Shown here: one piece after another, positions 12,019 through 53,444 of the stretch
How the letters are laid out: the number at the start of each line of letters is the position of its first letter
How positions within the stretch are numbered: position 1 is the first letter of the stretch
Assembly: GCA_947627355.1 (NCBI GenBank)
Contig: CANQVX010000007.1
Span: 14,952-78,951 of the forward strand
DNA: 64,000 nt
Direction of reading: 5' to 3'
DNA from: an uncultured Bacilli bacterium
GTDB taxonomy: Bacteria > Bacillota_I > Bacilli_A > RFN20 > CAG-631
Translations under genes and position numbers: made by a program
The notes under the pieces: model-generated
What the model was told of the DNA's origin: nothing
Database searches by the model: none
Seen by the model: only the letters and a program-made list of their open reading frames with translations

Positions 12019-12581
12019 ATGCTATATTTTTGCGTTATGCTATAGCACTCTTTTCGCTTGCAAAAGAAGAAAATAAAATCGAGACTTATTTAGATGAAGC
12101 AAATCAATTAATCGATATCATAAACGAAAATGAAACGTTGATAACATTTTTAAAAGACTATGGTATTGAAGTAAATGAAAAAAAGAAAGTTCTAGAAACA
12201 ATCTTTAAAGATAAAATTCAAAACAATTTATTGTATTTTTTATATGTTGTTGTTGATAACCAAAGAGGAAAATATTTAAAAGAAATATTAACTGAATTTG
12301 TTAAATATACTTATAAAACTCTTAATGTTCAAACTGGAATTATTTATTCAACTATCCCTTTAAAAGAAACTGATATCAAAAAGATTGAAAATAAAGTTGA
12401 AAAAATTATGAATTCAAAAATAAAACTTAAAAATCAAATTGATACAAATTTAATCGGTGGCTTTAAAATTGTGGTAGGTTATACAGTTTTTGATAATTCC
12501 ATTTTAAATAAAATTCAAAATCTAAAAAAAGATATTTTAGATAAAATCGGAAAGGAGGATTTCAATGAAAATAAATCATAA
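12015..12581 (+). CDS. atpH: F0F1 ATP synthase subunit delta
   Basis: 188 aa, operon position between b and alpha, overlaps both. Confidence 0.75.
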
Positions 12582-14073
12582 TGAAATTAGTACTCTAATA
12601 AAAGAACAAATCAAACAATATTCTCAAAAACTTGAACTATTAGATACTGGTAAAGTTATGTCTATTGGTGATGGAGTCGCTGTTGTACATGGACTTAAAA
12701 ATGCTATGCTTAGTGAACTAGTTGTCTTTAAAGATGATATCTATGGCATGGTTTTAAATCTTGAAGAAGATTGCGTTGGTGTTGTTTTATTAGGTGATGA
12801 TTCTCAAATAAAAGAAGACGATATTGTAACAAGAACAAATAAAATCATTGAAATTCCTGTTGGTGATGGCTTTTTAGGAAGAGTTGTAAATGCTATTGGT
12901 AAACCAATCGATGGTTTAGGACCAATTGAAAGCACTAAAACTAGACCAATTGAAAGAATTGCTTATGGTGTAATTACAAGAAAATCGGTAAGTGTACCAT
13001 TACAAACTGGCATCATGGCAATTGATTCTATGATTCCAATTGGTAGAGGACAAAGAGAATTAATCATTGGCGATAGACAAACTGGAAAAACAGCCATAGC
13101 TATTGATACCATCATTAACCAAAAAAATAAAAATGTTAAATGTGTTTATGTAGCGATTGGTCAAAAAGCTTCAACGGTTGCTCAAGTAGTTGAAAAGTTA
13201 AGAATTCATGGCGCTCTTGAATATACGACAATTGTTTCATCAACTGCTAGTGAAATGGCTTCACTTCAATACATTGCTCCATATGCTGGAATCACTCTAG
13301 CTGAAGAATGGATGGAAAAAGGTGAAGATGTTTTAATTGTTTATGATGATTTAAGTAAACACGCTGTTGCTTATCGAACATTATCTTTACTTTTACGTCG
13401 TCCACCTGGAAGAGAAGCTTATCCTGGTGATGTCTTCTATCTACATTCTAGATTACTTGAAAGATCTGCTAGGTTAAGTAAAGAATATGGTGGTGGTTCA
13501 ATTACAGCCCTACCTATTATTGAAACATTAGCTGGTGATATATCAGCATATATTCCTACTAATGTTATTTCAATTACTGATGGTCAAATCTTTTTACAAA
13601 CTGAACTATTTAATGCTGGCCAAAGACCGGCAATTGATACTGGTTTGTCAGTTTCAAGAGTTGGCTCAAATGCCCAAATAAAAGCTATTAAACAAGTATC
13701 AGGAACACTTAAAATTGAACTTGCAAACTATCGAGAAATGCAAGCATTTGCTCAATTTGGTAGTGATTTAGATAGAACTACTAAAGAAACACTAGAACAT
13801 GGAAGCAAAGTTATGGAAATGTTAAAACAACCACAATATGCTCCAATGGATGTGTATGATCAAATTCTTGTTTTGTTTGCTGCTAGACATCGTTTTATTA
13901 AACCTGTACCAATTCATAGAATCAAAGAATATCAAACAAGTTTACTAGATATGATGCATGCAAAACATCAAGATTTGATAGAAAACATAAAACAAGAACA
14001 AAAAATAACTGAAGAAATAGAAAATAAACTAAAAGAAATATATCAAGAATTTACTAATCAATTTGTTTTATAA
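12565..14073 (+). CDS. atpA: F0F1 ATP synthase subunit alpha
   Basis: P-loop GDRQTGKT, 502 aa. Confidence 0.95.
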
Positions 14074-14092
14074 ATAAAAAGGAGGTGTCAAA

Positions 14093-14947
14093 ATGGCTTT
14101 AAGTATGCAACAAAGCAAAAATCGAATTAAGTCGATTCAATCGACAAAAAAGATAACTAAAGCGATGGAACTTGTTTCTACATCGAAACTTAAACGTGCC
14201 AAAGATATCTATTTTAAAATGACACCTTTTGAAAAAGAATTGCAAACTTTAATGAGTTGTGTAGTTTCTAATCTAGACAATAAAAAGAACATTTATTTCA
14301 ATAAAAATCTAAATAGCAAGAAAAAACTATACATCATAGTTACTTCAAGTCTAGGTTTATGTGGTGGTTATGATGCTAACATCTATCGGTTTATTGAAAA
14401 TAAGATTAATAAAGATAATGATGACTTAATTATCTTTGGTCTTAAAGGAATTCATTATTTTGCTAACAAAGGTTTTTCAATCATTGATAAACAAGAAGAA
14501 TTACCTCAATTCAATGTAAAAGAAAAAATTACCGATAGAATCGCTAAAATTGTGCAATCACAATATGAAAATCAAATCTATGAATCTATTTATATGGTTT
14601 ATAGTAAATATATTAATTCATTAACTTTTGAACCAACACAGGTTACATTACTTCCTTTAGATGCTAAAAAACAAAAAGTTAAGATGTCTAAAGAATTACT
14701 GATAGAACCTAGCAAAGAAGAAGTCTTAAAAGAATTAATTCCATTTTATTTAAACATGGAAATCAAAAAATATTTATTTGAAGCAATGTTATCCGAGCAA
14801 GCATCACGTAGAACTGCTATGGAAAATGCAACAGATAATGCTTATGAATTAGAAAATCAATTACTACTTGCTTATAACAAAGCAAGACAAGCAATGATAA
14901 CTCAAGAAATTAGTGAAATTTCTGGTAGTGCCGATGCACTTAAATAG
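14093..14947 (+). CDS. atpG: F0F1 ATP synthase subunit gamma
   Basis: 284 aa, conserved gamma N- and C-terminal helices, operon position. Confidence 0.9.
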   Translation: MALSMQQSKNRIKSIQSTKKITKAMELVSTSKLKRAKDIYFKMTPFEKELQTLMSCVVSNLDNKKNIYFNKNLNSKKKLYIIVTSSLGLCGGYDANIYRFIENKINKDNDDLIIFGLKGIHYFANKGFSIIDKQEELPQFNVKEKITDRIAKIVQSQYENQIYESIYMVYSKYINSLTFEPTQVTLLPLDAKKQKVKMSKELLIEPSKEEVLKELIPFYLNMEIKKYLFEAMLSEQASRRTAMENATDNAYELENQLLLAYNKARQAMITQEISEISGSADALK

Positions 14948-14956
14948 GAGGTGTAA

Positions 14957-16357
<1,401 letters not shown>

Positions 16358-16362
16358 GAACT

Positions 16363-16740
16363 ATGAAACTAAAAATTGTAAACCTTGAAGGTCTTTATTT
16401 AGAAACTGATGTTGATGCTATTGTTGTTAAAACTACTAATGGTGAACTAACTATTCTAAATAAACATATTCCTTTAATAACTAATTGTACGATTGATGTT
16501 TTAAGAGTTATAAAAGATGGTAATGAAGAGTTATATGCTTTAGCTGGTGGTGTATTATTTGTCGATGAAAACGAAACAAAAATCATTACAATGGCTATTG
16601 AAAATAAAAAAGAAATTGATTTTAATCGAGCAGAAAATGCTAAAAAGAGAGCAGAAGATAGATTAAAAGATCCACAAAGTGATATTAAAAGAGCGGAAAT
16701 TGCTTTAAAAAGAGCAATGAATCGTTTATCATTAAAATAG
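16363..16740 (+). CDS. atpC: F0F1 ATP synthase subunit epsilon
   Basis: 125 aa, operon position, beta-sandwich plus helical hairpin. Confidence 0.85.
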   Translation: MKLKIVNLEGLYLETDVDAIVVKTTNGELTILNKHIPLITNCTIDVLRVIKDGNEELYALAGGVLFVDENETKIITMAIENKKEIDFNRAENAKKRAEDRLKDPQSDIKRAEIALKRAMNRLSLK

Positions 16741-16758
16741 CAAAGGAGTAATAAAAAT

Positions 16759-16977
16759 ATGATTACATTACTTATTTCAACAAAAGCTATCTTAAATCTA
16801 GTATGTTATGGTTTAGGTTTAGTTATCGGTGCTTATTTTTGTAAGTATATTGAACTTCAAAAAAAGATGAATACTGCAAACAAAGTAGGATTTTATTTTG
16901 TCTATGTTGTTTTAACTTGTGTGATTGGTTTTATTATTGGGGAATTTCTATTTAGACTAATTACTATGTTTATGTAG
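16759..16977 (+). CDS. small membrane protein (YwzB/DUF1146-like)
   Basis: 72 aa, two TM helices, directly after atpC as ywzB is in B. subtilis. Confidence 0.45.
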   Translation: MITLLISTKAILNLVCYGLGLVIGAYFCKYIELQKKMNTANKVGFYFVYVVLTCVIGFIIGEFLFRLITMFM

Positions 16978-16986
16978 GTATCTATT

Positions 16987-17556
16987 ATGTATTCCAAACA
17001 CAAACAATTAGAATATGATATTCAAACATTTTTAAAAAATCCTAAAACGTTTGAAGAAATAGATCAAAGAAACTTTTTTGATAAATATTTTGTAATTATC
17101 TTTTTACCATTTATTTTATCAATAGTTTTATTCTTATTTTTGTTACTCATAGGTTTTAATAAATACATGCCAGCTATTTATATACTACCTATGCTATATT
17201 TGATATTTTTATATTTTTGTTTAGTTGAATATTTATCATTCATTCAATTATTTAAAAATTATCCTGAATTTGCTTATGTATATTTTCTTGCAAAGAATGA
17301 TAAAGAAAAGAAAAAAGATTTTTCATATGATAAAGCTGTTCAAAAATTATATAATCAGTTAACTAAACATAAAATAATTGCAAAAAAAAGACTTAAATAT
17401 AAGTTTCTTATAGGACTTCCTACTTATATAACAATCTTAATGATGATTATACTTGGCTGTCCTGAAGCATCACTTGTTATCATTGCTGTTAGTGTAATTT
17501 ATCTATTTTATTTTTTAATCGAAGTTATCATGCGATTTGGTGGAAAAGGAGAATAA
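16987..17556 (+). CDS. hypothetical multi-TM membrane protein
   Basis: 189 aa, very hydrophobic, no family recognised. Confidence 0.45.
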   Translation: MYSKHKQLEYDIQTFLKNPKTFEEIDQRNFFDKYFVIIFLPFILSIVLFLFLLLIGFNKYMPAIYILPMLYLIFLYFCLVEYLSFIQLFKNYPEFAYVYFLAKNDKEKKKDFSYDKAVQKLYNQLTKHKIIAKKRLKYKFLIGLPTYITILMMIILGCPEASLVIIAVSVIYLFYFLIEVIMRFGGKGE

Positions 17557-17581
17557 AATTCTTCTTTTTTTATGCAAACTC

Positions 17582-17612
17582 TTGACACAGTCGGGGGGGG
17601 GTTAAACTAAGA
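17582..17612 (+). promoter_or_regulatory. candidate promoter with G9 homopolymer in the spacer (possible phase-variable switch)
   Basis: TTGACA 17582-17587, G9 17593-17601, TAAACT 17603-17608 (spacer 15 nt as it stands). Confidence 0.4.
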
Positions 17613-17633
17613 TTGAAAGTGAGAGTAGATATT

Positions 17634-18605
17634 ATGAAAAAAGCATTTAAATTAGTTTTAAAATTATTAGTTATTGCCGTTTCTATCGGAGGTTTTTCAT
17701 ATTTAGGTTATCATATTTATAACCGTTATTTTGTGGGATCTAATGCCGATAAACCTAAAGTTTTAGCTGTTGTTAAAAATGTTTCATTTAATTCTAAAAC
17801 AAACATGTTAACATGGAGTAATGTTAATCATGCGGATTCATATATTGCAAACATAAATGGTGTAGAATACAACGTTCAATTGAATGAAATGAACTATGTT
17901 CCCGTTTCAAACAAAACAGAATTCAAAGTTAAACCAGTTGATTCAACAGGAGAATATGCTTCTCCAGGCTGGTCAAAAACTTACACCTACACTTTAAACA
18001 ATGAGTTTTCTTACTCAAAAGTTAGTTCTTATATAAATGACGCTTTGCCAACAAATGATTTAAAGAAAGTTATTAGTGCTTATGTTAAAGATAACAGTTT
18101 ATACACAAATTGCTACTTTACAAAAAATGGCACTGATAAAATGATGAAATTACAAATTAAATATAATACAGAAGTTTCATCAATTGCAGATTGTATAAAT
18201 ACTGGATACAGAAGTGTAACGATAAAAAACACTTACTATGTAGCAAACTATGACTCTGCAAGTTATCTTCTTCAATCAAATTCTTTTGTTGGTGAAATGG
18301 AACAAAGAAGACTAGAAGGATATAATTTCACTGTAGTTGCCAGTCAAGTTGGAAAAGTGGAAGATAGTACAGATTATCATATCTTTGCAACATATAAACT
18401 TACAAAAGGTGATGATGTTAAATATATAGAGAGTAACATTTTGTGTGGAGTAAAAAATCCATCATATAATGAAAAAACTAATTTTACAACAAATCTTTTA
18501 AATATGAATAATAGAATAGTTTATGAAGATTCATACACTGAACTCAAAGGCGATGAAATAATCTTTGCTAAAAGCATGGATGAAGTACAAATTCAAAAAT
18601 ATTAA
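17634..18605 (+). CDS. hypothetical membrane-anchored extracellular protein
   Basis: N-terminal TM/signal anchor KLLVIAVSIGGFSYLGY; ATG 17634 preferred over TTG 17613 of the ORF track. Confidence 0.5.
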   Translation: MKKAFKLVLKLLVIAVSIGGFSYLGYHIYNRYFVGSNADKPKVLAVVKNVSFNSKTNMLTWSNVNHADSYIANINGVEYNVQLNEMNYVPVSNKTEFKVKPVDSTGEYASPGWSKTYTYTLNNEFSYSKVSSYINDALPTNDLKKVISAYVKDNSLYTNCYFTKNGTDKMMKLQIKYNTEVSSIADCINTGYRSVTIKNTYYVANYDSASYLLQSNSFVGEMEQRRLEGYNFTVVASQVGKVEDSTDYHIFATYKLTKGDDVKYIESNILCGVKNPSYNEKTNFTTNLLNMNNRIVYEDSYTELKGDEIIFAKSMDEVQIQKY

Positions 18606-18680
18606 ATCCTAGATTTACCAATTATTTCCATCAAGCATTGTTTTTAGATATTTGGGAAAAATGATGTTGAGGTGAAAGCA

Positions 18681-19346
18681 ATGAAAAGATTTTTAAGATG
18701 GTGTAAAGAAGCAAAGTTTGGATTAATACTAGGTGCTATAGCATTTGTATTTATATTAAGCATTTCTTTAATTGCTACCAATAATAAGAAAACAAATCAA
18801 GTGGCTAAACTTCCATCTTCATCAATAAATAGTTCTAGTACTGGAAATTCTTCTACTAGTTCTAGTAGTAGTTCTACTTATATAAATTCAATAGTTAAAG
18901 AAAAACTAATAAAACCATTTAAGGTTGACGCTACTATTTCTCGTTATTTCTTTGATGATGAAGATCCTATGGAAATAAAAAGCCAAGCAATTGTAACTTA
19001 TCAAAACAAAGTTTTACCAAGTCAAGGTGTTGATTACACCTATAATGATGAAGCTTTTGATGTAATGGCTGCTTTTAGTGGAAAAGTAATAGCTAAGAAA
19101 AATGATCCAATGTATGGACTTAGCATTGCAATTGAACATACTAGTGGTGTTGTAGCTTATTATTGTGGTCTTACTGAAGTAAATGTTATGCAAGATGAAA
19201 ACATCACTCAAAACACTATTTTAGGTAAGGCTGGAGAAAGCGTTATCAATGCTAAATTAGGTAAACATTTACACTTTGCAATTCAAGTAAATAATAATTA
19301 CATAAATCCATTAAAATCTTATGATAAATTAGTCGAAGATTTATAG
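18681..19346 (+). CDS. membrane-anchored M23/LytM-domain protein with degenerate first metal-binding motif (SpoIIQ-like)
   Basis: N-terminal TM, Ser-rich linker, C-terminal GKHLHFAIQ (HxH) motif but no His in the HxxxD position (YNDEAFD); GGTGA RBS before ATG 18681. Confidence 0.6.
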   Translation: MKRFLRWCKEAKFGLILGAIAFVFILSISLIATNNKKTNQVAKLPSSSINSSSTGNSSTSSSSSSTYINSIVKEKLIKPFKVDATISRYFFDDEDPMEIKSQAIVTYQNKVLPSQGVDYTYNDEAFDVMAAFSGKVIAKKNDPMYGLSIAIEHTSGVVAYYCGLTEVNVMQDENITQNTILGKAGESVINAKLGKHLHFAIQVNNNYINPLKSYDKLVEDL

Positions 19347-19373
19347 AAAAAAATGCACTTGTTGCATTTTTTT
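19347..19373 (+). terminator. rho-independent terminator
   Basis: A7-ATGCA-cttgt-TGCAT-T6. Confidence 0.6.
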
Positions 19374-19412
19374 GTTGCGGCCAATCCCTATGATTTTAGC
19401 CAATAAAAGTAT

Positions 19413-19441
19413 TTGACTAGAGGTGAATATTATTATATAAT
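19413..19441 (+). promoter_or_regulatory. consensus sigma-A promoter TTGACT-17-TATAAT
   Basis: -35 19413-19418, -10 19436-19441, RBS AAGGAG 19470-19475. Confidence 0.65.
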
Positions 19442-19483
19442 ATTTTCTAGAGAAATTATTTTTTTAGCAAAGGAGCATGAAAA

Positions 19484-20953
19484 ATGAATAATAAGTTAAA
19501 AAAAGTTTTAGCTAGTATTTTCGTCCTAACTCTAGTTGCTGCACCTTTATATGGTTGTGGCGGTGACAAGGCTTCTTCTTCAAGCAAGGTAGAAGAAAAT
19601 CCGGTAAAAGTTACATTAAATAGAAAAATGTACTTAATAGGCGAAAGTCTAGATGTACAAAAAGTTGAAGTATATCGTGAAGCTTTAGGCTTCTATAACA
19701 CAGTATCAAACTACACTGTTGCAAATGATGGTTGGAACCAATCAGCAGGTCATAAGAAAGTAACTATCAGTGCTGGTTCAGAAAAGGCTACTGTTGAAGT
19801 TGATGTTTATGAATCTGCAGCTGCTGCAGCTGAAGCAAATTCTATTTATGATGAAAATGGAGATATGAGCAAATACTTCGACGAAACAAAAGTAATTAAT
19901 CTTAATAGAAACACATTAAGAAAAGAAACAATCTTAGGTGAAGATAAAGACGGAGCCCCTCTTTTAAGATCATTTGTTGGAAGTAAGACTACTTCTTCAT
20001 TAAATAAAGAAGGCGCTGGTCCAGTTGATATTTGGACCGCTGATTCAAGCAATCCAAATCGTTCAATTTTACAATATGAATTACATCCAGAAATTCCAGG
20101 AAACGAAAGAGCTTTTACTACTCCACATACAAGAGTACATAAAGTTGATGTTCTTGATGACAAAGGTGAAAAAACCGGAGAAGAATCATGGAAATGGATG
20201 TTTGCTTCTTATGATGCAGCTCAATGGCGTACCGAAATGATTTTTGATAAAGATGGTAAAATTGCTTATATGGCATTTTGTATGCCAGATAACTCTTGGA
20301 CAGCAGCAGCTGGACATCCTCATACAACAAGATGGTATTCACATTCTGAATTTGCAGAAACAAAAGTAAAAAATCCAGCGCTTCTATTTGAAGAAGATGA
20401 AACAAACGTACAAACACTAGTTTCTAGAATGTATGAACCAGTTACATTTGATGTAACTCAAGAAGATTCTAATGGTTTTGCTGATAAATACTTCTATGAA
20501 AAGATCATCCCTGAAGGTGGTTTCTATATGATTTTAACTAACCAAGAAGCTAGCACAGTATGGCAATGGTGGACTGGTGATGAAACACAATCAATCGATG
20601 ATGATCATGCAGCTTCTATTTGTACACAAGCACAAAGAGATAAAGGTGCTGATGAATATCGTGGAATTTTAGATCCAGGAAGTAAGAGAGCAAACTTCTA
20701 TGCCCCATCTACTTTACAACAACAATATGCTTATTGGTATCTTGAAATCATTAAAGGTTCAGAAGAACATGCAACCGAATATGCAGAAGTAGCTGAAACA
20801 AGAAAAGAAATTTATAAATTATTAGTTGAAGCTGCTAACCCTGTAGTTGAAGAAGAACCTGTTTTAAAAGATTACTATGATACTACAGTTCAAGCTAAGA
20901 TTAAAACTTGGGCAAATGCAGTTCAAGATATTCAAGAAAGTTTAGCTGCTTAA
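19484..20953 (+). CDS. lipoprotein, function unknown
   Basis: signal peptide with lipobox LYGC; 489 aa. Confidence 0.6.
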   Translation: MNNKLKKVLASIFVLTLVAAPLYGCGGDKASSSSKVEENPVKVTLNRKMYLIGESLDVQKVEVYREALGFYNTVSNYTVANDGWNQSAGHKKVTISAGSEKATVEVDVYESAAAAAEANSIYDENGDMSKYFDETKVINLNRNTLRKETILGEDKDGAPLLRSFVGSKTTSSLNKEGAGPVDIWTADSSNPNRSILQYELHPEIPGNERAFTTPHTRVHKVDVLDDKGEKTGEESWKWMFASYDAAQWRTEMIFDKDGKIAYMAFCMPDNSWTAAAGHPHTTRWYSHSEFAETKVKNPALLFEEDETNVQTLVSRMYEPVTFDVTQEDSNGFADKYFYEKIIPEGGFYMILTNQEASTVWQWWTGDETQSIDDDHAASICTQAQRDKGADEYRGILDPGSKRANFYAPSTLQQQYAYWYLEIIKGSEEHATEYAEVAETRKEIYKLLVEAANPVVEEEPVLKDYYDTTVQAKIKTWANAVQDIQESLAA

Positions 20954-27100: not shown

Positions 27101-28546
27101 ATGGATTATTTAAATCAAAGTTTAGAAACTATTCACCAAGCCTTAAAAGATAAAAAAGTAACAGTTACAGAACTTGTAAAAGAAGCTATTAACAAAGCAA
27201 AGAAACTACAAGAAACTTGTAATGCTTTTGTAACAATTGATGAAGACAATGCTTTAAATCAAGCAAAAGAACTAGATAATAAAGAAGTAACTGATAATTT
27301 ATTATTTGGTATTCCAATGGCTATTAAAGATAACTATTCAACCAAAGATGTTTTAAGCACGGGTTCTAGTAATATTTTAAATAACTATGTACCTATTTTT
27401 GAATCACAAGCAACTAGTTTATTAAAAGATGCTAACGCCATATCAATTGGTAAAACTGTCTTAGATGAACTTGCTATGGGGGGAAGTGGGCTTACAGGAC
27501 ACACAGGTGTTGTTAAAAACCCATTAGATACTAATCGTTTAATTGGTGGTTCATCAGCTGGTAGTTGTGCTGCAGTTGTTGCTGGTGTTATTCCTTTTGC
27601 CTTAGGTAGTGATACTGGTGATTCAGTAAGAAAACCAGCATCTCTTGGTGGTATTGTTGGCTTTAAACCTACTTGGGGTAGAATTTCTCGTTATGGTCTA
27701 TATCCATTTGCTCCATCATTAGATACAGTTGCTTTCTTTACAAGAAATGTTAAAGATAGTGCTTATATTTTTGATGTTTTAAATGGTTATGATAACAAAG
27801 ATATGACCTGTTTTAACCTAGAAAAAGAAATTGTTTATGATTCTATTAATGGAACCATAAAAGGTAAAAAAATAGCGGTTTTAAAAGAAATATATGAAAC
27901 AATTTCTAATCCTGAAATAAAAAAAGAATTTGATGAATTCTTTGAAAATGTTAAAAAGCAAGGTGTTCAAGTTGATTTAATATCAATTGATAAAAAATTA
28001 TATGACACAATTTATTCAACATATATGATTTTATCTTGTTCTGAAGCAACCTCAAATAATGCTAACCTAGATGGCATTAATTTTGGAAATTATGTTGAAG
28101 CTAATGGTGTTGATGCTTCAGTTATTGCAACTCGTAGTAAAGGATTTAGTGAATTAATCAAGAGACGTTTTGTAATTGGTAGTTATATTTTAAGTAAAGA
28201 AAATCAAGAAAAACTATTCATTAAAGCTAAAAAACTTCGCCGTTTAATTGTTGAAGATGTTAATCGCATCTTAGATAGTTATGATGCTATTGTTTTACCA
28301 GCTTCTGGTAATGTTGCTCCATTATTTAAACAAGGTAATGATGTTGATCGTTTATCAGATGAATATTTATTACTTGAAAATCATATGGCTATTGGTAATT
28401 TTGGTGGTTTTCCTAGCATTACCATTCCTTGTATCAAATATCAAGGATTACCAATCGGTATAAATATTACAGGCAAGGCATTTAAAGATAAAGACGTTTT
28501 AAATCTTGCTTATGGCCTTGAATCAATGATTGGAGGTAAGAAATAA
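27101..28546 (+). CDS. gatA: Asp/Glu-tRNA amidotransferase subunit A
   Basis: amidase signature GGSSAGS. Confidence 0.95.
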   Translation: MDYLNQSLETIHQALKDKKVTVTELVKEAINKAKKLQETCNAFVTIDEDNALNQAKELDNKEVTDNLLFGIPMAIKDNYSTKDVLSTGSSNILNNYVPIFESQATSLLKDANAISIGKTVLDELAMGGSGLTGHTGVVKNPLDTNRLIGGSSAGSCAAVVAGVIPFALGSDTGDSVRKPASLGGIVGFKPTWGRISRYGLYPFAPSLDTVAFFTRNVKDSAYIFDVLNGYDNKDMTCFNLEKEIVYDSINGTIKGKKIAVLKEIYETISNPEIKKEFDEFFENVKKQGVQVDLISIDKKLYDTIYSTYMILSCSEATSNNANLDGINFGNYVEANGVDASVIATRSKGFSELIKRRFVIGSYILSKENQEKLFIKAKKLRRLIVEDVNRILDSYDAIVLPASGNVAPLFKQGNDVDRLSDEYLLLENHMAIGNFGGFPSITIPCIKYQGLPIGINITGKAFKDKDVLNLAYGLESMIGGKK

Positions 28547-47205: not shown

Positions 47206-50200
47206 ATGGAAGAAAACAATATTTTAGAAGGAATTGATTTAAGCAATGAAATTTTAAACAAAAGAACAAATAATTCTAAGTTCTACTTACAACCAGATGG
47301 TGCAGTTGTAATGATTTCTGATTTATGTGATGACGATATAATGTTAACAAGCACAAATTCAGACACAGAAATAACAAGTTTTGAATCAACCGGAACAACA
47401 GTTACATTACAAGAGCAAGAAGTAAAATTTGGAAAAGATAAAACAACTAATCAATTTTATAGAGCATATTTCCAATTTTATAATTATAGTTTTTTGAGTA
47501 AAGATGTCACTTCCGCAACATTAACTCTACACATTAACAATACAAAATATGCAACAGCTTTATATTATTCAATTTATCCTATTAAATCTAGAATTTTTGC
47601 TGGTGATAGACTACCAGAATATGATGAAAGCAGTCCTCTTGTAGAAAAGCAATATCCATCATCAGCAACATTAACATTAAATGTGCAAAAAATTATTGCA
47701 AATGATTATTGGGGAATAGTTATAAAGTCAAGTGAAGATAGTTCTGTACCTGGAACAGGAACATTTTATGGTTCAAAAAATTCATCTTCAAGTAATAGAC
47801 CGCAATTAATAGTCAAATATTATGATAGTATTTCTGTATCTAACAGCGAAAATGTAGGAACCATCACATTAAATGATAAAAGTTTTGCAAACATTAAGAA
47901 TATTAGCGGTTATAAAGAATTTAAACATTTATGTTTATCCCTTGGTGGAATTGATTTATATCATATCTATAATGATATTATCGGAAGATATTCATCTGTT
48001 AATAGTAAAAAAGCAACACAAGAATATCGTTTTGGTGTTGGTGCAAAATGTAATTTTCATATGAATCTATTTAATGAAAACAGATTAAATAATCAAATAA
48101 GTGATAGTACAATAACATTGATAGACGATAATGATAGTTATATGCCATTTAATAAAAAATATTATTATGTTAAAAATGGAAAAAGAATTTTTGTTAATGA
48201 AAACGAAATCAAAGAAAAGAATTTTAAATACATATATGTTGATAGTGATGGAATAGAATATGACATAACAATTTCATATTTTGATTTTTTAGGTCGAGAA
48301 ATACGTGTTGATAAATCAAAAGCTGCAATGTTTGAAGCGTTGGTAAATAATAAATACAATCTTACCTATTATGTAAAAGACATAAAAGGTAATGTTGTTG
48401 ATATTGAATATGATATTCAAACAAATACAGCCACATATAAAATGGCTCAATTAGAAGAATATAACGGAAATGTGTTTGTAGTAGATAATGATTTTATAAC
48501 AATTGAAAATGGAGTCAAAGTATATCATAAAAATGGTTTTAATATTAAAGTGCAAAACGATAGTTATTTACAAAAAGTATCAGTTATAAAACAAAACGAT
48601 AATCTTTATTTGCATTCAAACTATGTAATGTATGACATGTATGGGAATCCAACATGGGCAAGTTATAAGAAGCAAATATATGAAAAGATAAATATGAATG
48701 GTATTGATTTTTCAAATGTTAGCATACCAGAAGAATTATATTACCTAAGACAAGAATTGGATCAATTAGAAGAAACAAAAGAAAATATTCAAAAACAAAT
48801 CGAACAATACACAGAATATTTAACTTATAGTGATGCTAAAATAAAAGAAAAGATGTTGCAAATACAACAAGAACTACTTTTATATGAAATCAAAGATAAC
48901 ACAAATAAACAAATTGAAGAGAATGCAGATAATTTTATTAAAGTGTATGAATCAATGCCTGAAGATAAGCTTTGGCATATTCTTTGGCGGCAATCTGCAC
49001 AAGCTAAATATGAAGAATATGTTAGAAGAAACTTAACAATTGAATATCAAAATTTGCAATATTACTTAAATGAATTAAACATGTCTTCAATACCAAGAGA
49101 AGAAAATCATATCAAGAAAACAATAGAAGAATATGAAAGTGATTTAGATAATGTTGAAAAAGAAATAGAAAACACAAGAGCAAATATTATTGAATTAGTT
49201 GAACAAGAAAAGAGAAAACCAATTGATTGTTTATTATTAAATGGAACAGAAATATGGTTTGATTTTTTCGGTAAAATGGTACAAATCAAAAGAATTAAAC
49301 AGGAAATAAATATTAATTATGATAGAGATGATTATTTAATTAATATCACAAATCAAAACAATGAAAAATTATTTGATTTTGAATACGAAAATGGATTTGT
49401 AACAAAGATTACAGATGCAACTGGAAAATATGTAACACTAGAATATGATTCAAGTGATCGAATTCAACAAATAACTCATGATAACGGTGAATATGTAAAA
49501 TATGGATATTATGATTTTGGATTGCATAACGTTTATGATAACTGTGGAAGAAATTTAGCACTTGCTACAGGAAGTGTTGTCACATCATGTAGTTTTAATT
49601 CAAAAATAAGTGAAATAAATGATGAAGGCATTGTAACAGATACCCAAGAAATATTATATTATTATGAAACTATTGCAACAGCAAATAAGCATTGGAGAAT
49701 AATACGTGATGACAATGATATATATATTCATACATACGATAATTACTGTAATTTAGTAGGAGTTTTTGAATCAAACAATACAATTCCAAGTGAAAAAATA
49801 CAAGTAGGAAAAGAACCATCATATCGTTTTTATGGAACAGATAAAAAATATGATGTATATTTAAATTACAAGGCAAATCTTCTACAAAACGGAAGTTTCG
49901 AGGATGGTCTAAGTAATTGGATTTTAAGCAACTCAAATAATCAAATTACTAAAGATGCATATGTAGATGGTAGTAATGCAATAAATCTTTCATTAGGATA
50001 TATGTATCAAAATGTGCCAATTGAAAATGTAAAAGATTATAATTATTTAGTTTTTGGTGGTTATGCGTTAGCTAAATCAGCACCAGTTAGAATGAATCAA
50101 AGACAAATTGATGAATCATTAAACAATCAAATAAGTAGTGGTACAAAATTTGAATTAAGAGCACAACTAGAATACAATGATGGAAGCACAGAAGTATTTA

Positions 50201-53022
50201 ACACAACATTTGACTGGAAGATTACTGATTGGCAATTTGCGGCTGTTTTAATCAAAATAAACAAGCAAAAAACACTTTATAGATTTTGTGTTTATGTAGA
50301 TTTTAGTTCAAATACAGGTACTGCAATTTTTGATAATTTTGCACTTTGTGAAGCAAATGGTTCATATCAAGAAATAAACAGCGATGAAACTATAAATTAT
50401 AAAACCAATTTTGAAAGTGAAACATATTATAATAAATATGATGGATACAACCCAACCGAAAGCGTTTTTGTCGATAAAAACGGCTATAAATTAACAACAT
50501 ATTATACATATGATTTTTATAATCGCTTACTTCGTACAGAAACTAGTGAAGGAATAATAACAGCATATAAGTATGAAGAAAATGAAACGATACAAGAAAC
50601 ATATCATAAAGATGATCCAACAAACAAATTGATTCATCATGAAATTGTCGATGAAAACGGACGTTTACTAGAAGAGTTTGATAGCAAAGAAAATCAATCA
50701 ACCAAATATAATTATGTTAGTCCAATTAGTTCTTTGATTGATTTAATAGAAAATGGGGTTCAAAAAATCTATTATGGATATGATAATAGAACCGATGAAA
50801 TGGTAAGTCAAAGTCAAACAATTCATCAACAAGACGCCACATTAAGATATCATTACACAGATGGATTAGTAACAAGAATTGATAATGATTTTGATGTGAC
50901 AGTTAAATATGCATACGATAATAAAAAAAGATTGAAAAAAGCAATTGTTAATGAATTAATATTAGAAGATATTGAAACAAACGAAAATGTAACATTTACA
51001 ATCGATGGCAAACAATTTACAGGTGATGAAGTAAATACATTTTATGATTTGTTTTATGTAAGCAAAAAATATAATGATAAGAATCAAATTTTATCAGTTT
51101 CTGAGGGAAAGAAAAATTTTACACCTGTAGAAACAGTATTAACTTATAGTTACGATGAAAAAGATAGACTTGTAGCAATTAATGATAAAGTAAATGAAGA
51201 AAACAGTTATAGTTTTACATATAATAATAATGATTTATTAAGTGGTTTTGCTACAGATAAAGTGACTGGTTCAATCTTTTATAATACAAGGAACCAAATA
51301 TCTAAAGAGGTATATTCTTTTGATAATTCAGATAGTTTTAGTTATAGTTACGAATATGATGAAGCAAATCCATATCAATGTAATTATATATATACTCATT
51401 TAGATAAAAGTGCTAAAACAATCTTTAATTATGATTTACTATCTAGAGTAAAAAGTAAAGCAATCAATATATTAGATATGAATAGAACAATATATGAAGA
51501 ATACTATTCATATTGTAAAGATAATAACCAAACCAACATGCAAATAGCTAAGATAAATTATGTAGTCTATAATGCAATGGATGATTGTTTTGAATATAAA
51601 TATGATAGCAACCATAGAATTGTTGGAATAATGAAAAATGGTCTAGTTATAAACGAATACGAATATGATATTTTAAATAGATTAAGTGTTGAAAAAGATT
51701 ATAATAATCAAACAAAAATTAGATATCAATATGATATAGTAGGTAACATTTTAAAAAAATTCTATTATGATTTAAAGACAAATGAACTTGTTAAGACTGA
51801 TACATATACTTATACAAAAGGAACATTTGGTTTAAAATTATCAAAATTTAATGGAACAAATGTAAAAACATTTACACTAAATGATAAAAAACAATTGACA
51901 GAATATGATGGAACAACATTTACATATAATACTAGAGGATTAAGAATTAACAAAAATAATGCTAAGTATTATTATGATCATAACAATAGACTATTTAAAG
52001 AAGAAAATGGAACTAATACAATTTATTATTTCTATATCAACAATCAAGTTCAATATCTAAAAGTAAATGATACACAATACATATTAAGAAGAAACATATT
52101 CAATGATGTAACTCACATTTATAATTTTGAAGGTAAACTAGTAGCATATTATGAATATGATTCTTGGGGCAATCATAAAGTATACGACGAAACAGGAAAA
52201 GTTAATGAAAATGCCGATTTTATCGGAAATATTAATCCAATCAGATATCGTGGATATTACTATGATGTAGAAACCAAACTTTATTATTGTAATGCTAGAT
52301 ATTATAATCCTGAACATGGAAGATGGATAAGCGAAGATTCAATCGATTATTTGAATCTTGCCACTATTAACGGATTAAATTTCTATTCATATTGTAATAA
52401 CAACCCTATAATGTATGTTGATCCAAGTGGACATATTATAGGATTAATTATTGGATTACTTGCTGGTGCATTTATTGTAGGCTCTGCCACAAGTGCTATA
52501 AGCCAGGGTGTTACTTATGGTTGGGATAATATTGACATCTTGCAAGTTTTTACTGATGGATTATTTGCACTAGGTTCTACTGCATTAGCCATGACAGGAA
52601 TTGGTTCAATAGGATCTGCAATTATAGGAGCAGGAATGGGTTTTGCACAATATGCAATCGGCGCATCACGCCACGGAGAAGATATAACATTGCTTGGTTC
52701 ATTAACATCAATTGGTCTAGGTGCTATCGGTGGTGCTATAAGTGGTGCTGGTGCAAGAAACAATACAAGTATCATTAAAAATATGAAATTAACTGGTAGT
52801 GGAGCCAGCGCAGTTAAAGCAATTACAACTGCAACTAATAGATATTTCGCCGGAGAGATTTCAATGAGAGGTCTCCAAGCAACAACAAATCTATGGGGGA
52901 ATGCAGCATTAAATGCTGTACAAAACGCAATAGCACCTGCAATTGCTAGAGGAATGATTTGGGGAACTGGAAAAGTTCTACTTTGTACAATTGGTTCTAC
53001 AATACTAAATAATATATTCTAA
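47206..53022 (+). CDS. RHS/YD-repeat polymorphic toxin (1938 aa)
   Basis: many YD repeats (YEYD, RYQYDIVGN, YDxxxR), RHS core YYCNARYYNPEHGRWISEDSIDY ending DPSGH, then variable C-terminal domain; RBS GAGGTGA. Confidence 0.85.
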   Translation: MEENNILEGIDLSNEILNKRTNNSKFYLQPDGAVVMISDLCDDDIMLTSTNSDTEITSFESTGTTVTLQEQEVKFGKDKTTNQFYRAYFQFYNYSFLSKDVTSATLTLHINNTKYATALYYSIYPIKSRIFAGDRLPEYDESSPLVEKQYPSSATLTLNVQKIIANDYWGIVIKSSEDSSVPGTGTFYGSKNSSSSNRPQLIVKYYDSISVSNSENVGTITLNDKSFANIKNISGYKEFKHLCLSLGGIDLYHIYNDIIGRYSSVNSKKATQEYRFGVGAKCNFHMNLFNENRLNNQISDSTITLIDDNDSYMPFNKKYYYVKNGKRIFVNENEIKEKNFKYIYVDSDGIEYDITISYFDFLGREIRVDKSKAAMFEALVNNKYNLTYYVKDIKGNVVDIEYDIQTNTATYKMAQLEEYNGNVFVVDNDFITIENGVKVYHKNGFNIKVQNDSYLQKVSVIKQNDNLYLHSNYVMYDMYGNPTWASYKKQIYEKINMNGIDFSNVSIPEELYYLRQELDQLEETKENIQKQIEQYTEYLTYSDAKIKEKMLQIQQELLLYEIKDNTNKQIEENADNFIKVYESMPEDKLWHILWRQSAQAKYEEYVRRNLTIEYQNLQYYLNELNMSSIPREENHIKKTIEEYESDLDNVEKEIENTRANIIELVEQEKRKPIDCLLLNGTEIWFDFFGKMVQIKRIKQEININYDRDDYLINITNQNNEKLFDFEYENGFVTKITDATGKYVTLEYDSSDRIQQITHDNGEYVKYGYYDFGLHNVYDNCGRNLALATGSVVTSCSFNSKISEINDEGIVTDTQEILYYYETIATANKHWRIIRDDNDIYIHTYDNYCNLVGVFESNNTIPSEKIQVGKEPSYRFYGTDKKYDVYLNYKANLLQNGSFEDGLSNWILSNSNNQITKDAYVDGSNAINLSLGYMYQNVPIENVKDYNYLVFGGYALAKSAPVRMNQRQIDESLNNQISSGTKFELRAQLEYNDGSTEVFNTTFDWKITDWQFAAVLIKINKQKTLYRFCVYVDFSSNTGTAIFDNFALCEANGSYQEINSDETINYKTNFESETYYNKYDGYNPTESVFVDKNGYKLTTYYTYDFYNRLLRTETSEGIITAYKYEENETIQETYHKDDPTNKLIHHEIVDENGRLLEEFDSKENQSTKYNYVSPISSLIDLIENGVQKIYYGYDNRTDEMVSQSQTIHQQDATLRYHYTDGLVTRIDNDFDVTVKYAYDNKKRLKKAIVNELILEDIETNENVTFTIDGKQFTGDEVNTFYDLFYVSKKYNDKNQILSVSEGKKNFTPVETVLTYSYDEKDRLVAINDKVNEENSYSFTYNNNDLLSGFATDKVTGSIFYNTRNQISKEVYSFDNSDSFSYSYEYDEANPYQCNYIYTHLDKSAKTIFNYDLLSRVKSKAINILDMNRTIYEEYYSYCKDNNQTNMQIAKINYVVYNAMDDCFEYKYDSNHRIVGIMKNGLVINEYEYDILNRLSVEKDYNNQTKIRYQYDIVGNILKKFYYDLKTNELVKTDTYTYTKGTFGLKLSKFNGTNVKTFTLNDKKQLTEYDGTTFTYNTRGLRINKNNAKYYYDHNNRLFKEENGTNTIYYFYINNQVQYLKVNDTQYILRRNIFNDVTHIYNFEGKLVAYYEYDSWGNHKVYDETGKVNENADFIGNINPIRYRGYYYDVETKLYYCNARYYNPEHGRWISEDSIDYLNLATINGLNFYSYCNNNPIMYVDPSGHIIGLIIGLLAGAFIVGSATSAISQGVTYGWDNIDILQVFTDGLFALGSTALAMTGIGSIGSAIIGAGMGFAQYAIGASRHGEDITLLGSLTSIGLGAIGGAISGAGARNNTSIIKNMKLTGSGASAVKAITTATNRYFAGEISMRGLQATTNLWGNAALNAVQNAIAPAIARGMIWGTGKVLLCTIGSTILNNIF
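52435..53022 (+). other. C-terminal toxin domain of RHS protein: Gly/Ala-rich glycine-zipper hydrophobic domain (predicted membrane-inserting)
   Basis: about 195 aa after DPSGH: repeated GxxxG/AxxxG (IIGLIIGLLAGAFIVG, GIGSIGSAIIGAGMG, GLGAIGGAISGAG). Confidence 0.55.
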
Positions 53023-53048: not shown

Positions 53049-53444
53049 ATGAAAAGTACAGACATTATTGATTTTTATCTTATACAACTAGTTATATTAA
53101 TGTTATGCTTCTCAAATTTGATACTAGGAGGATCCTCTGATAAATATTTATCTGATTATACATTAAAAAAACTATCAGTTCCCAAAAAATCATTTTTAAG
53201 GAAACTAGTAATATTTAAAGAAAATAGATTTACAGTTCCTGATTCATTCTTATATATAAGAGTAATACCATACTTAATAGAATGGTTGTTTATTATTATA
53301 GGTACAATATTGATATTAATTAATCAATTTGTAGTTTACTTTATTCCAAGTTCTGCTTTTCTTATTTTTGGTTATTGTAATTTAGGTTTATATTTTGCTT
53401 ATGAAATATTATTAATGTTTTTAGGATATGGCATCCATTATTAA
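53049..53444 (+). CDS. candidate immunity protein (small multi-TM protein) for the RHS C-terminal toxin
   Basis: 131 aa, 3-4 TM helices, 26 nt downstream of toxin stop with RBS AAGGAGG. Confidence 0.5.
   Translation: MKSTDIIDFYLIQLVILMLCFSNLILGGSSDKYLSDYTLKKLSVPKKSFLRKLVIFKENRFTVPDSFLYIRVIPYLIEWLFIIIGTILILINQFVVYFIPSSAFLIFGYCNLGLYFAYEILLMFLGYGIHY

Follow-up and report, generated by a model that had tools for sequence, protein, structure and literature searches.

Repeat-driven contingency loci have been described chiefly in pathogens, namely Neisseria, Haemophilus, Campylobacter, Helicobacter, Treponema, and mycoplasmas, and the phase variation mapped so far in gut commensals concerns mostly invertible promoters and methylation. 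In porA of Neisseria meningitidis, a surface-protein gene, the spacer that separates the −35 and −10 hexamers holds a poly-G tract; according to the summary in PMC7864442, slippage changes the spacing, with expression at its highest for 17 nucleotides (nt) and abolished by shorter spacers. The poly-C tract of meningococcal opc overlaps the −35 hexamer (PMC3447861), and a rigid A-like DNA element has been proposed for it (PMC7864442). In Treponema pallidum tp0126, too, a poly-G tract separates −35 from −10 and 17 nt is the best total spacing, and the promoters of the tpr genes (tprE/G/J/F/I/L), which encode putative surface proteins, carry poly-G tracts of ~7–11 residues. The tprL tract ranges from 7 to 11 G, 9 G being the commonest and 8–11 G occurring as minority lengths, and open reading frames (ORFs) of T. 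pallidum have been mis-annotated because a tract lies upstream of the true start (PMC7864442). Repeats in promoters or their spacers, poly(A) in Mycoplasma hyorhinis vlp and (TA)n in Mycoplasma mycoides Vmm, switch the transcription of variable surface proteins ON or OFF (PMC10502178). Here we describe a tract of nine G residues (G9) in the putative promoter spacer of orf323, a gene for a predicted membrane-anchored surface protein, in a 64-kb stretch of DNA (the window) from an uncultured rabbit-gut lineage of Bacilli/Erysipelotrichales.

The tract is likely to be a slippage-prone repeat in a sigma-A-type spacer and to work as an expression switch for orf323. The polymorphism in tract length and the geometry of the spacer, both read from sequences, support this candidate phase-variable switch for a surface protein, which had been proposed in an earlier note on this DNA.

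Rarity and length variation of the G tract

Direct reading and a script both give GGGGGGGGG, a G9 run at positions 17593–17601, in the sequence context ...ctcTTGACAcagtcGGGGGGGGGtTAAACTaagattgaaagtgagagtagatattATG. The base composition of the window is 28.3% GC, and the tract is the sole G or C run longer than 6 in it; next in length come two G6 runs (at 27478 and 33632), and no C run is longer than 5. The number of G runs of 9 or more expected per 64 kb is 0.003 for independent, identically distributed bases and 0.005 under a first-order Markov model. The tract exceeds the length at which runs become slippable (~7–8 or more) and stands far above the compositional expectation, as is typical of contingency loci. 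In ~171 kb of related loci, no G or C run of 7 or more is found apart from the tract itself and the corresponding one of a second species, and Tandem Repeats Finder (TRF) detects no other comparable repeat in the window. The earlier note had called the run very unusual for low-GC DNA, and its coordinates, sequence, and rarity all hold.

The tract is not an assembly artefact, because the same unique flanks recur on both sides of it in contigs of four run or assembly accession groups (ERR10663xxx/ERZ27249xxx, SRR2927303x, DRR8xxxxx, and SRR27728189). A poly-G artefact of two-colour chemistry was also rejected, judging from the internal position of the tract, its unique flanks on both sides, and its reproduction across studies. 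The tract does not form part of a terminator, since there is no complementary C run and the hairpin lies upstream at 17542–70. A riboswitch or other RNA element was rejected as well; an Rfam search of 16000–20000 (E ≤1) returned only a chance U4 match elsewhere.

Public contigs of the same species were retrieved by exact-protein look-ups, and each record was counted once (n = 18). The tract is G8 in three records, G9 in twelve (including the window), G10 in two, and G11 in one. Six contigs that are 99.9–100% identical to the window over 1.7–6 kb are split 3:3 between G8 and G9, and beyond the tract they differ in total by three single-nucleotide polymorphisms (SNPs) and one 3-nt insertion or deletion. 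One identical 1150-nt upstream haplotype, with an identical 323-aa allele, is found with both G8 and G9. A trio of upstream haplotypes 2 SNPs apart carries G9, G10, and G9, and G10 and G11 are present on two further upstream haplotypes. Judging from these haplotypes, the tract length has changed at least four times. As a control for errors of sequencing or assembly, twelve A/T runs of 7–8 nt in the same contigs, four of them intergenic, show length changes in 0 of 129 observations, versus 6 of 16 and 3 of 9 at the two G tracts (this one and that of the second species described below). The T7 run at 17565–71 is invariant in 18/18 contigs. An invariant G9 in related strains, which the earlier note had named as evidence against a switch, is not seen; G8, G9, G10, and G11 all occur in the assemblies. 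The variation among near-identical genomes is observed on low-coverage assemblies rather than reads.

The ends of contigs near the tracts should also be noted. Four of ~28 contigs end within ~35 nt of a G tract (L022 5′, L029 3′, L031 3′, and L039 5′), and L029 and L031 end at or inside it. These breaks fit either length heterogeneity within a sample or poor sequencing at the tracts. L022 (positions 1–34) was considered as a recombinant upstream region with G9, and this was rejected; the contig is an ungapped variant with 6 substitutions in its terminal 34 nt at 4.7x coverage. It was left out of the length variants, the total spacer length being unchanged.

Spacing of the putative promoter in related lineages

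The spacer is 14 nt in the G8 allele, 15 nt in G9, 16 nt in G10, and 17 nt in G11, and the tract puts a G at −14 relative to the TAAACT promoter. The consensus promoter scanner accepts spacers of 16–18 nt only. It lists no promoter in the G9 window, the 15-nt spacer of which is outside this range, and it reports TTGACA-16-TAAACT for the G10 allele and TTGACA-17-TAAACT, with 10/12 matches, for the G11 allele. Natural tract lengths move the spacer into and out of the functional range of 16–18 nt (14–17 nt here, and 17–19 nt in the second species). The tract is placed between the −35 and −10 of the regulated gene by consensus and homology only. The earlier note had described TTGACA and TAAACT with a 15-nt spacer at present, as reading and the script confirm, and had expected a spacer of 16–17 nt on gain of one or two G; the G10 and G11 alleles exist, and the scanner matches both. 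A C-to-G change at 17581, directly 5′ of the −35 hexamer, is found in one G9 contig (L004) and is among the only three SNPs of the six near-identical contigs.

A sister species (atpD ~84% nt identity; orf323 homologue 72–76% protein identity) gives a reference for the promoter. At the same place, its contig L034 has TTGATA-17-TATAAT (11/12), and the spacer, acaacaaaaGGGtttat, is non-repetitive with only GGG. In the MAFFT alignment of the G11 allele with L034, no gap occurs from the −35 through the −10. The assignment of TAAACT, rather than TAAGAT, as the putative −10 is supported because this ungapped alignment puts TAAACT exactly on the TATAAT of the sister species. The alternative TAAGAT (17608–13) would give spacers of 19–22 nt for G8–G11, none of which is functional, and is misaligned with the −10 of the sister species. 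Because the G11 allele aligns ungapped with the sister promoter, the comparison shows the tract as an expansion within what would be an ancestral 17-nt spacer.

The sigma-F consensus in Bacillus is GYATA ... GGnnAnAHTR. A sigma-F reading of the site, in which the last GG of the tract and TTAAACTA would form GGnnAnAHTR, was rejected; a GYATA-like −35 is missing at the appropriate spacing, and the sister promoter does not fit.

Compared with L034 (1470–1510), the sister-species genome L007 (2990–3010) lacks 25 nt between two direct repeats of ATGAAAAAAAG. The deletion removes the Shine-Dalgarno region, and the −10 (AATAAT) ends 4 nt before the ATG, so that the L007 mRNA may be leaderless, judging from its sequence. 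Each of the more distant homologues is likewise preceded closely by an ordinary promoter of its own, in the equivalent position. A scan of Joint Genome Institute (JGI) metagenomes yielded five distant homologues only, 0/5 with a tract.

A second tract is found in another rabbit-gut metagenome-assembled genome (MAG), upstream of the gene for P0009, a protein 48% identical to orf323. The neighbours of this gene are an AAA_14/DUF4143 gene and an ABC/FtsX gene, and it is not beside the atp operon. The promoter reads TTGACA-aat(a/g)aaaac-Gn-TATAAT, that is, TTGACA-N9-Gn-TATAAT, with a spacer length of the G count plus 9. The ten records comprise six of G10, one of an interrupted C+G9, two of G9, and one of G8; G8–G10 correspond to 17–19 nt, the commonest state being G10 with 19 nt. 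In the scanner, the G8 form (17 nt) and the G9 form (18 nt) each score 12/12, and the G10 form (19 nt) gives no promoter. Identical protein alleles in this species (P0054 and P0055) each occur with several tract lengths. Since both hexamers are perfect, volume-control behaviour is plausible in the second species.

P0010, the nearest relative of P0009 (59%), has a unique-sequence spacer, TTGATT-17-TATACA (by our count), and no tract. The non-G parts of the spacers in the two species are unrelated, and no palindrome or shared motif flanks both tracts, the hexamers alone being common to them. The tract probably arose twice, independently, because two gains are more parsimonious than one gain and several losses.

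Candidate mechanism and alternative explanations

In the mechanism that we propose, slipped-strand mispairing at replication would add or drop G residues. Each step would change the distance between −35 and −10 by 1 bp and rotate the hexamers by ~34 degrees relative to each other. G11 (17 nt) and G10 (16 nt) would be the expressed states, and G9 (15 nt), the length in the window and the most frequent one, would be weak or OFF, as would G8 (14 nt). The amount of the orf323 protein, and possibly of the M23 protein encoded downstream, would thereby vary in a stochastic, heritable, and reversible manner; most cells in most samples would express little, and slippage would regenerate expressers. Where transcription starts, how it responds to tract length, and whether a clone can switch back and forth are inferred, as is phage or host antibody as the selective agent.

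Several points weigh against the expression switch. The length data come from short-read metagenome assemblies of ~3–10x coverage, some ENA and Logan contigs may share runs, which would bring the independent observations below 18, and the records of the second species are all from one study. Runs of G9–10 are intrinsically more error-prone than the A/T controls of 7–8 nt. Variation between samples is no proof of fast, reversible switching within a clone. The promoter is putative, being a consensus match only, and its −10 in the window species matches at just four of six positions. In each species the spacers seen extend to the optimum of 17 nt, and the most frequent one (15 nt and 19 nt) misses it by 2 bp; under the model, the gene would be mostly low or OFF.

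The last two points would also be compatible with a hypermutable but neutral intergenic tract, with no regulation and with the promoter of orf323 elsewhere or insensitive to length: the −10 reaches only 4/6, and commonest lengths that are not optimal could equally mean that the hexamers are not the promoter. This explanation is improbable. G runs of 8 or more are expected ~0.005 times per 64 kb, and no other G or C run of 7 or more occurs in the 171 kb of related sequence, yet tracts are found between TTGACA and TAnnnT upstream of homologous genes in two lineages; sister lineages have plain 17-nt spacers, and the length ranges take in the 17-nt optimum in both species. Off-optimum commonest states in both species are compatible, too, with graded use, in which a regulator might bind more or less well according to tract length, or the tract might itself serve as a rigid A-like DNA element, instead of acting through hexamer spacing. 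Such a rheostat would be a variant of the switch model, and rheostat-like or regulator-dependent tracts are described in the literature for opc (PMC7864442) and Helicobacter pylori sabA. However, no palindrome or shared motif surrounds the tracts of the two species, only the hexamers, and the simple spacing model already explains the homology to a 17-nt promoter; we regard the rheostat as rather improbable.

It is very unlikely that the tract is invariant and that G8–G11 reflect errors of sequencing, polymerase chain reaction (PCR), or assembly. The 3–10x coverage of the ENA contigs and the four contigs that end in a tract or within ~35 nt of one, where assemblers struggle, agree with such errors, but the breaks are also expected from heterogeneity within samples. 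Moreover, G8 is found in three assemblies and G9 in many, the four lengths include one +2 change, none of the 129 observations of A/T runs of 7–8 nt shows a change, and the same pattern is seen in the second species.

We give hardly any credence to a translational switch from the ATG at 17572, in which only G10 (or G7 or G13) would give a 344-aa protein. The frame is open in this way at G10, and the G10 alleles L027 (2086–3120) and P0061, which begins MQTLDTVGGGVKLRPKVRVDI-MKK, are called as 344 aa because the ATG at 17572 comes in frame. However, the closest GGAG is 20 nt upstream of this ATG, inside the terminator-like hairpin, leaving no usable Shine-Dalgarno sequence, and transcription would have to come from upstream through the hairpin. 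All homologues start with MKK and the transmembrane (TM) helix, the sister species is without the extension, and in the second species the frame through the tract reaches a stop. From the sequence context, the ATG at 17572 is probably not a real start codon, and the tract is not found inside an ORF downstream of a functional start, as it would be in an intragenic frameshift switch. The 344-aa orf323 is, on these grounds, an annotation artefact that depends on tract length. This is a practical trap in annotation, in that gene callers stretch the ORF to 344 aa at G10.

The orf323 gene, its surroundings, and comparison with known loci

Features around the G tract are listed in Table 1.

Table 1 Features of the locus, in positions of the window
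Feature	Position	Strand	Evidence or remark
A/U-rich hairpin and U run	17542..17570	+	fold of 17538–17640: 13-bp stem, 3-nt loop
Upstream ATG	17572..17574	+	in frame with orf323 only at G10 (also G7, G13)
−35 hexamer TTGACA, 6/6	17582..17587	+	aligns with TTGATA/TTGACA of the sister-species promoter; paired with TAAACT by the scanner in G10, G11
Promoter spacer cagtc-G9-t, 15 nt	17588..17602	+	length = G count + 6
G9 homopolymer, hypermutable repeat	17593..17601	+	G8–G11 in same-species contigs
−10 hexamer TAAACT, 4/6 (A2, T6 present)	17603..17608	+	sister-species alignment; scanner at G10, G11
Predicted short 5′ leader	17615..17633	+	transcription start at ~17615 inferred from the −10 position
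orf323, 323 aa, type-II membrane-anchored surface protein (predicted)	17634..18605	+	AlphaFold, Fn3 structure matches
M23 (LytM-domain) membrane protein, SpoIIQ-like	18681..19346	+	Pfam Peptidase_M23 3e-17
Hairpin AAAAAAAUGCA-CUUGU-UGCAUUUUUUU and U run	19347..19373	+	RNA fold of 19335–19490

AlphaFold models with predicted local distance difference test (pLDDT) values of 86 and 87 have an N-terminal TM helix (residues 2–34), preceded by MKK. In the orf323 model, an Fn3-like sandwich (~45–120) and a C-terminal tandem alpha/beta domain of helix and beta-sheet (126–323) follow. Foldseek against the PDB gives domain-level matches to Fn3 only, at residues ~45–120; the C-terminal domain has no Foldseek match with E ≤0.001, and its weak similarities are to cystatin-like or NTF2-like folds. 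No match to orf323 is found in Pfam, NCBIfam, PHROG, or the PDB sequence profile, and by these searches it is an uncharacterised family. The protein is predicted to be extracellular and surface-exposed from the model. The predicted structure is in line with the earlier note, which had read the ORF at 17634–18605 as a membrane-anchored extracellular protein.

Within the species, orf323 shows 81–92% nt identity among at least eight alleles (the window versus L018, L019, L023, and L025–L028). The flanking atpC, orf72, and orf189 are 98–100% identical, and the M23 gene is intermediate (90–96%). Synonymous divergence (dS) of orf323 reaches 0.5, the ratio of nonsynonymous to synonymous divergence (dN/dS) is 0.3–0.45, and the variable patches lie in the C-terminal domain (residues 158–166, 186–196, 235–245, and 265–300). 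Judging from these alleles, the pattern is one that a surface protein shows when its alleles are often exchanged or when selection on it is diversifying or balancing. In L030 (ERZ27249496), orf323 lacks 26 nt after codon 37 and then continues with the sequence of a different allele, and in one 17.3-kb ENA contig the gene is split into ORFs of 211 aa and 102 aa (P0059/P0060). These disrupted genes could represent true loss of function or chimeric assemblies of mixed strains at ~3x.

This unannotated surface protein is a likely key interface with phage or host. The two gains of the tract, the commonest lengths 2 bp off the optimum, and the position of orf323 as the most divergent gene in its neighbourhood lead us to a further idea, which is tentative and rather doubtful: that one family has gained a poly-G switch twice, is mostly silent and re-expressed by slippage, and is a major target of phage or host antibody in rabbit-gut Erysipelotrichales-like bacteria. 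If true, it would mean that gut Bacillota with a cell wall, for which descriptions of phase variation have so far centred on DNA inversion, also hedge their bets by means of repeats.

Upstream of orf323 lie the F1Fo ATP synthase genes atpA/G/D/C (12565–16740) and two small ORFs for membrane proteins without a family, of 72 aa (16759–16977) and 189 aa (16987–17556). The hairpin at 17542–17570 overlaps the stop codon of the 189-aa gene, the z value of −2.2 applying to the whole 17538–17640 stretch. The pattern scanner makes no terminator call at 17542–17570, where G-C pairs are too few; the hairpin, which directly precedes the promoter, probably acts as a weak terminator for the atp-orf72-orf189 unit. 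A Shine-Dalgarno-like GAGAG is located at 17621–25, 8 nt before the ATG of orf323. Since no hairpin or terminator is found between orf323 and the M23 gene (the fold of 18590–18690 is unremarkable, z = +0.55), the two may be co-transcribed. The hairpin at 19347–19373 is a probable terminator of the orf323-M23 unit, and the next gene has its own promoter, TTGACT-17-TATAAT, at 19413–19441. Because of the flanking hairpins and the promoter of the next gene, the tract promoter probably drives orf323 and perhaps the M23 gene.

The earlier note had described the downstream gene as SpoIIQ-like M23. The M23 assignment stands and SpoIIQ is the best NCBIfam match (127 bits, E = 8e-37), but this score is below the 250-bit cut-off for membership of that family. 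Where the HxxxD zinc motif would be expected, the protein reads SQGVD, and it keeps HLH, a combination that we take to be the pattern of Bacillus subtilis SpoIIQ. Upstream of the gene, GCATT-14 nt-GGGAAAAATG at 18635–18663 resembles the sigma-F consensus given above. A forespore-expressed SpoIIQ-like M23 gene with its own promoter would fit these sequence features.

In the lipoprotein gene at 19484–20953, a 3-nt CTT deletion is found at 19572–19574 in the comparison with L004, in a (CTT)n run that encodes a Ser stretch just after a lipobox-like Cys. This is a second repeat polymorphism in a surface gene, seen in one assembly. At 47206–53022, a 1938-aa protein with RHS repeats is encoded, followed by a 131-aa ORF (53049–53444), and the two could be a polymorphic toxin/immunity pair, judging from their sequences. 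Other genes of the window include those for PolC, GatA/B, a Mur ligase, and an ABC/FtsX transporter. The gene content indicates a chromosomal region of a cell-wall-making Bacillota, since the window encodes the Mur ligase and the LytM-type protein. Among genome records, the nearest are MAGs from the rabbit ('Lapin') gut that bear the label uncultured Bacilli, and the only named relative is an Erysipelotrichales MAG.

In the literature searched, no report of repeat-based phase variation in Erysipelotrichales was found. Mollicutes are the closest major relatives of Erysipelotrichales. The locus is a clean comparative case of a repeat-driven locus in an uncultured rabbit-gut lineage of Bacilli/Erysipelotrichales, in which the device seems to have evolved convergently on a single protein family. 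The features visible at the sequence level support its assignment as a candidate promoter-spacer repeat contingency locus of the porA/tp0126/vlp type.

As predicted here, the locus resembles porA and T. pallidum tp0126 in the G tract between −35 and −10 of a surface-protein gene and in the 17-nt optimum. However, porA and opc belong to a Gram-negative pathogen, encode outer-membrane proteins, and have been characterized experimentally, whereas the gene here belongs to an uncultured gut commensal of Gram-positive type, encodes an unrelated protein, and is supported by comparative evidence only. The opc tract, moreover, overlaps the −35, while the tract here is clear of it. The range of G8–G11 with G9 commonest and the over-called ORFs (344 aa here) recall T. 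pallidum, a spirochaete with many tracts genome-wide; here one tract is found in 64 kb, and the proteins are non-homologous. The mycoplasma loci differ in having A or TA repeats, multigene lipoprotein families, and wall-less hosts, in contrast to the G repeat, the single-copy TM-anchored protein, and the walled host of this locus. By analogy, they nevertheless share with it a simple-sequence repeat in the promoter spacer of a variable surface protein, predicted to be so in the case of orf323.
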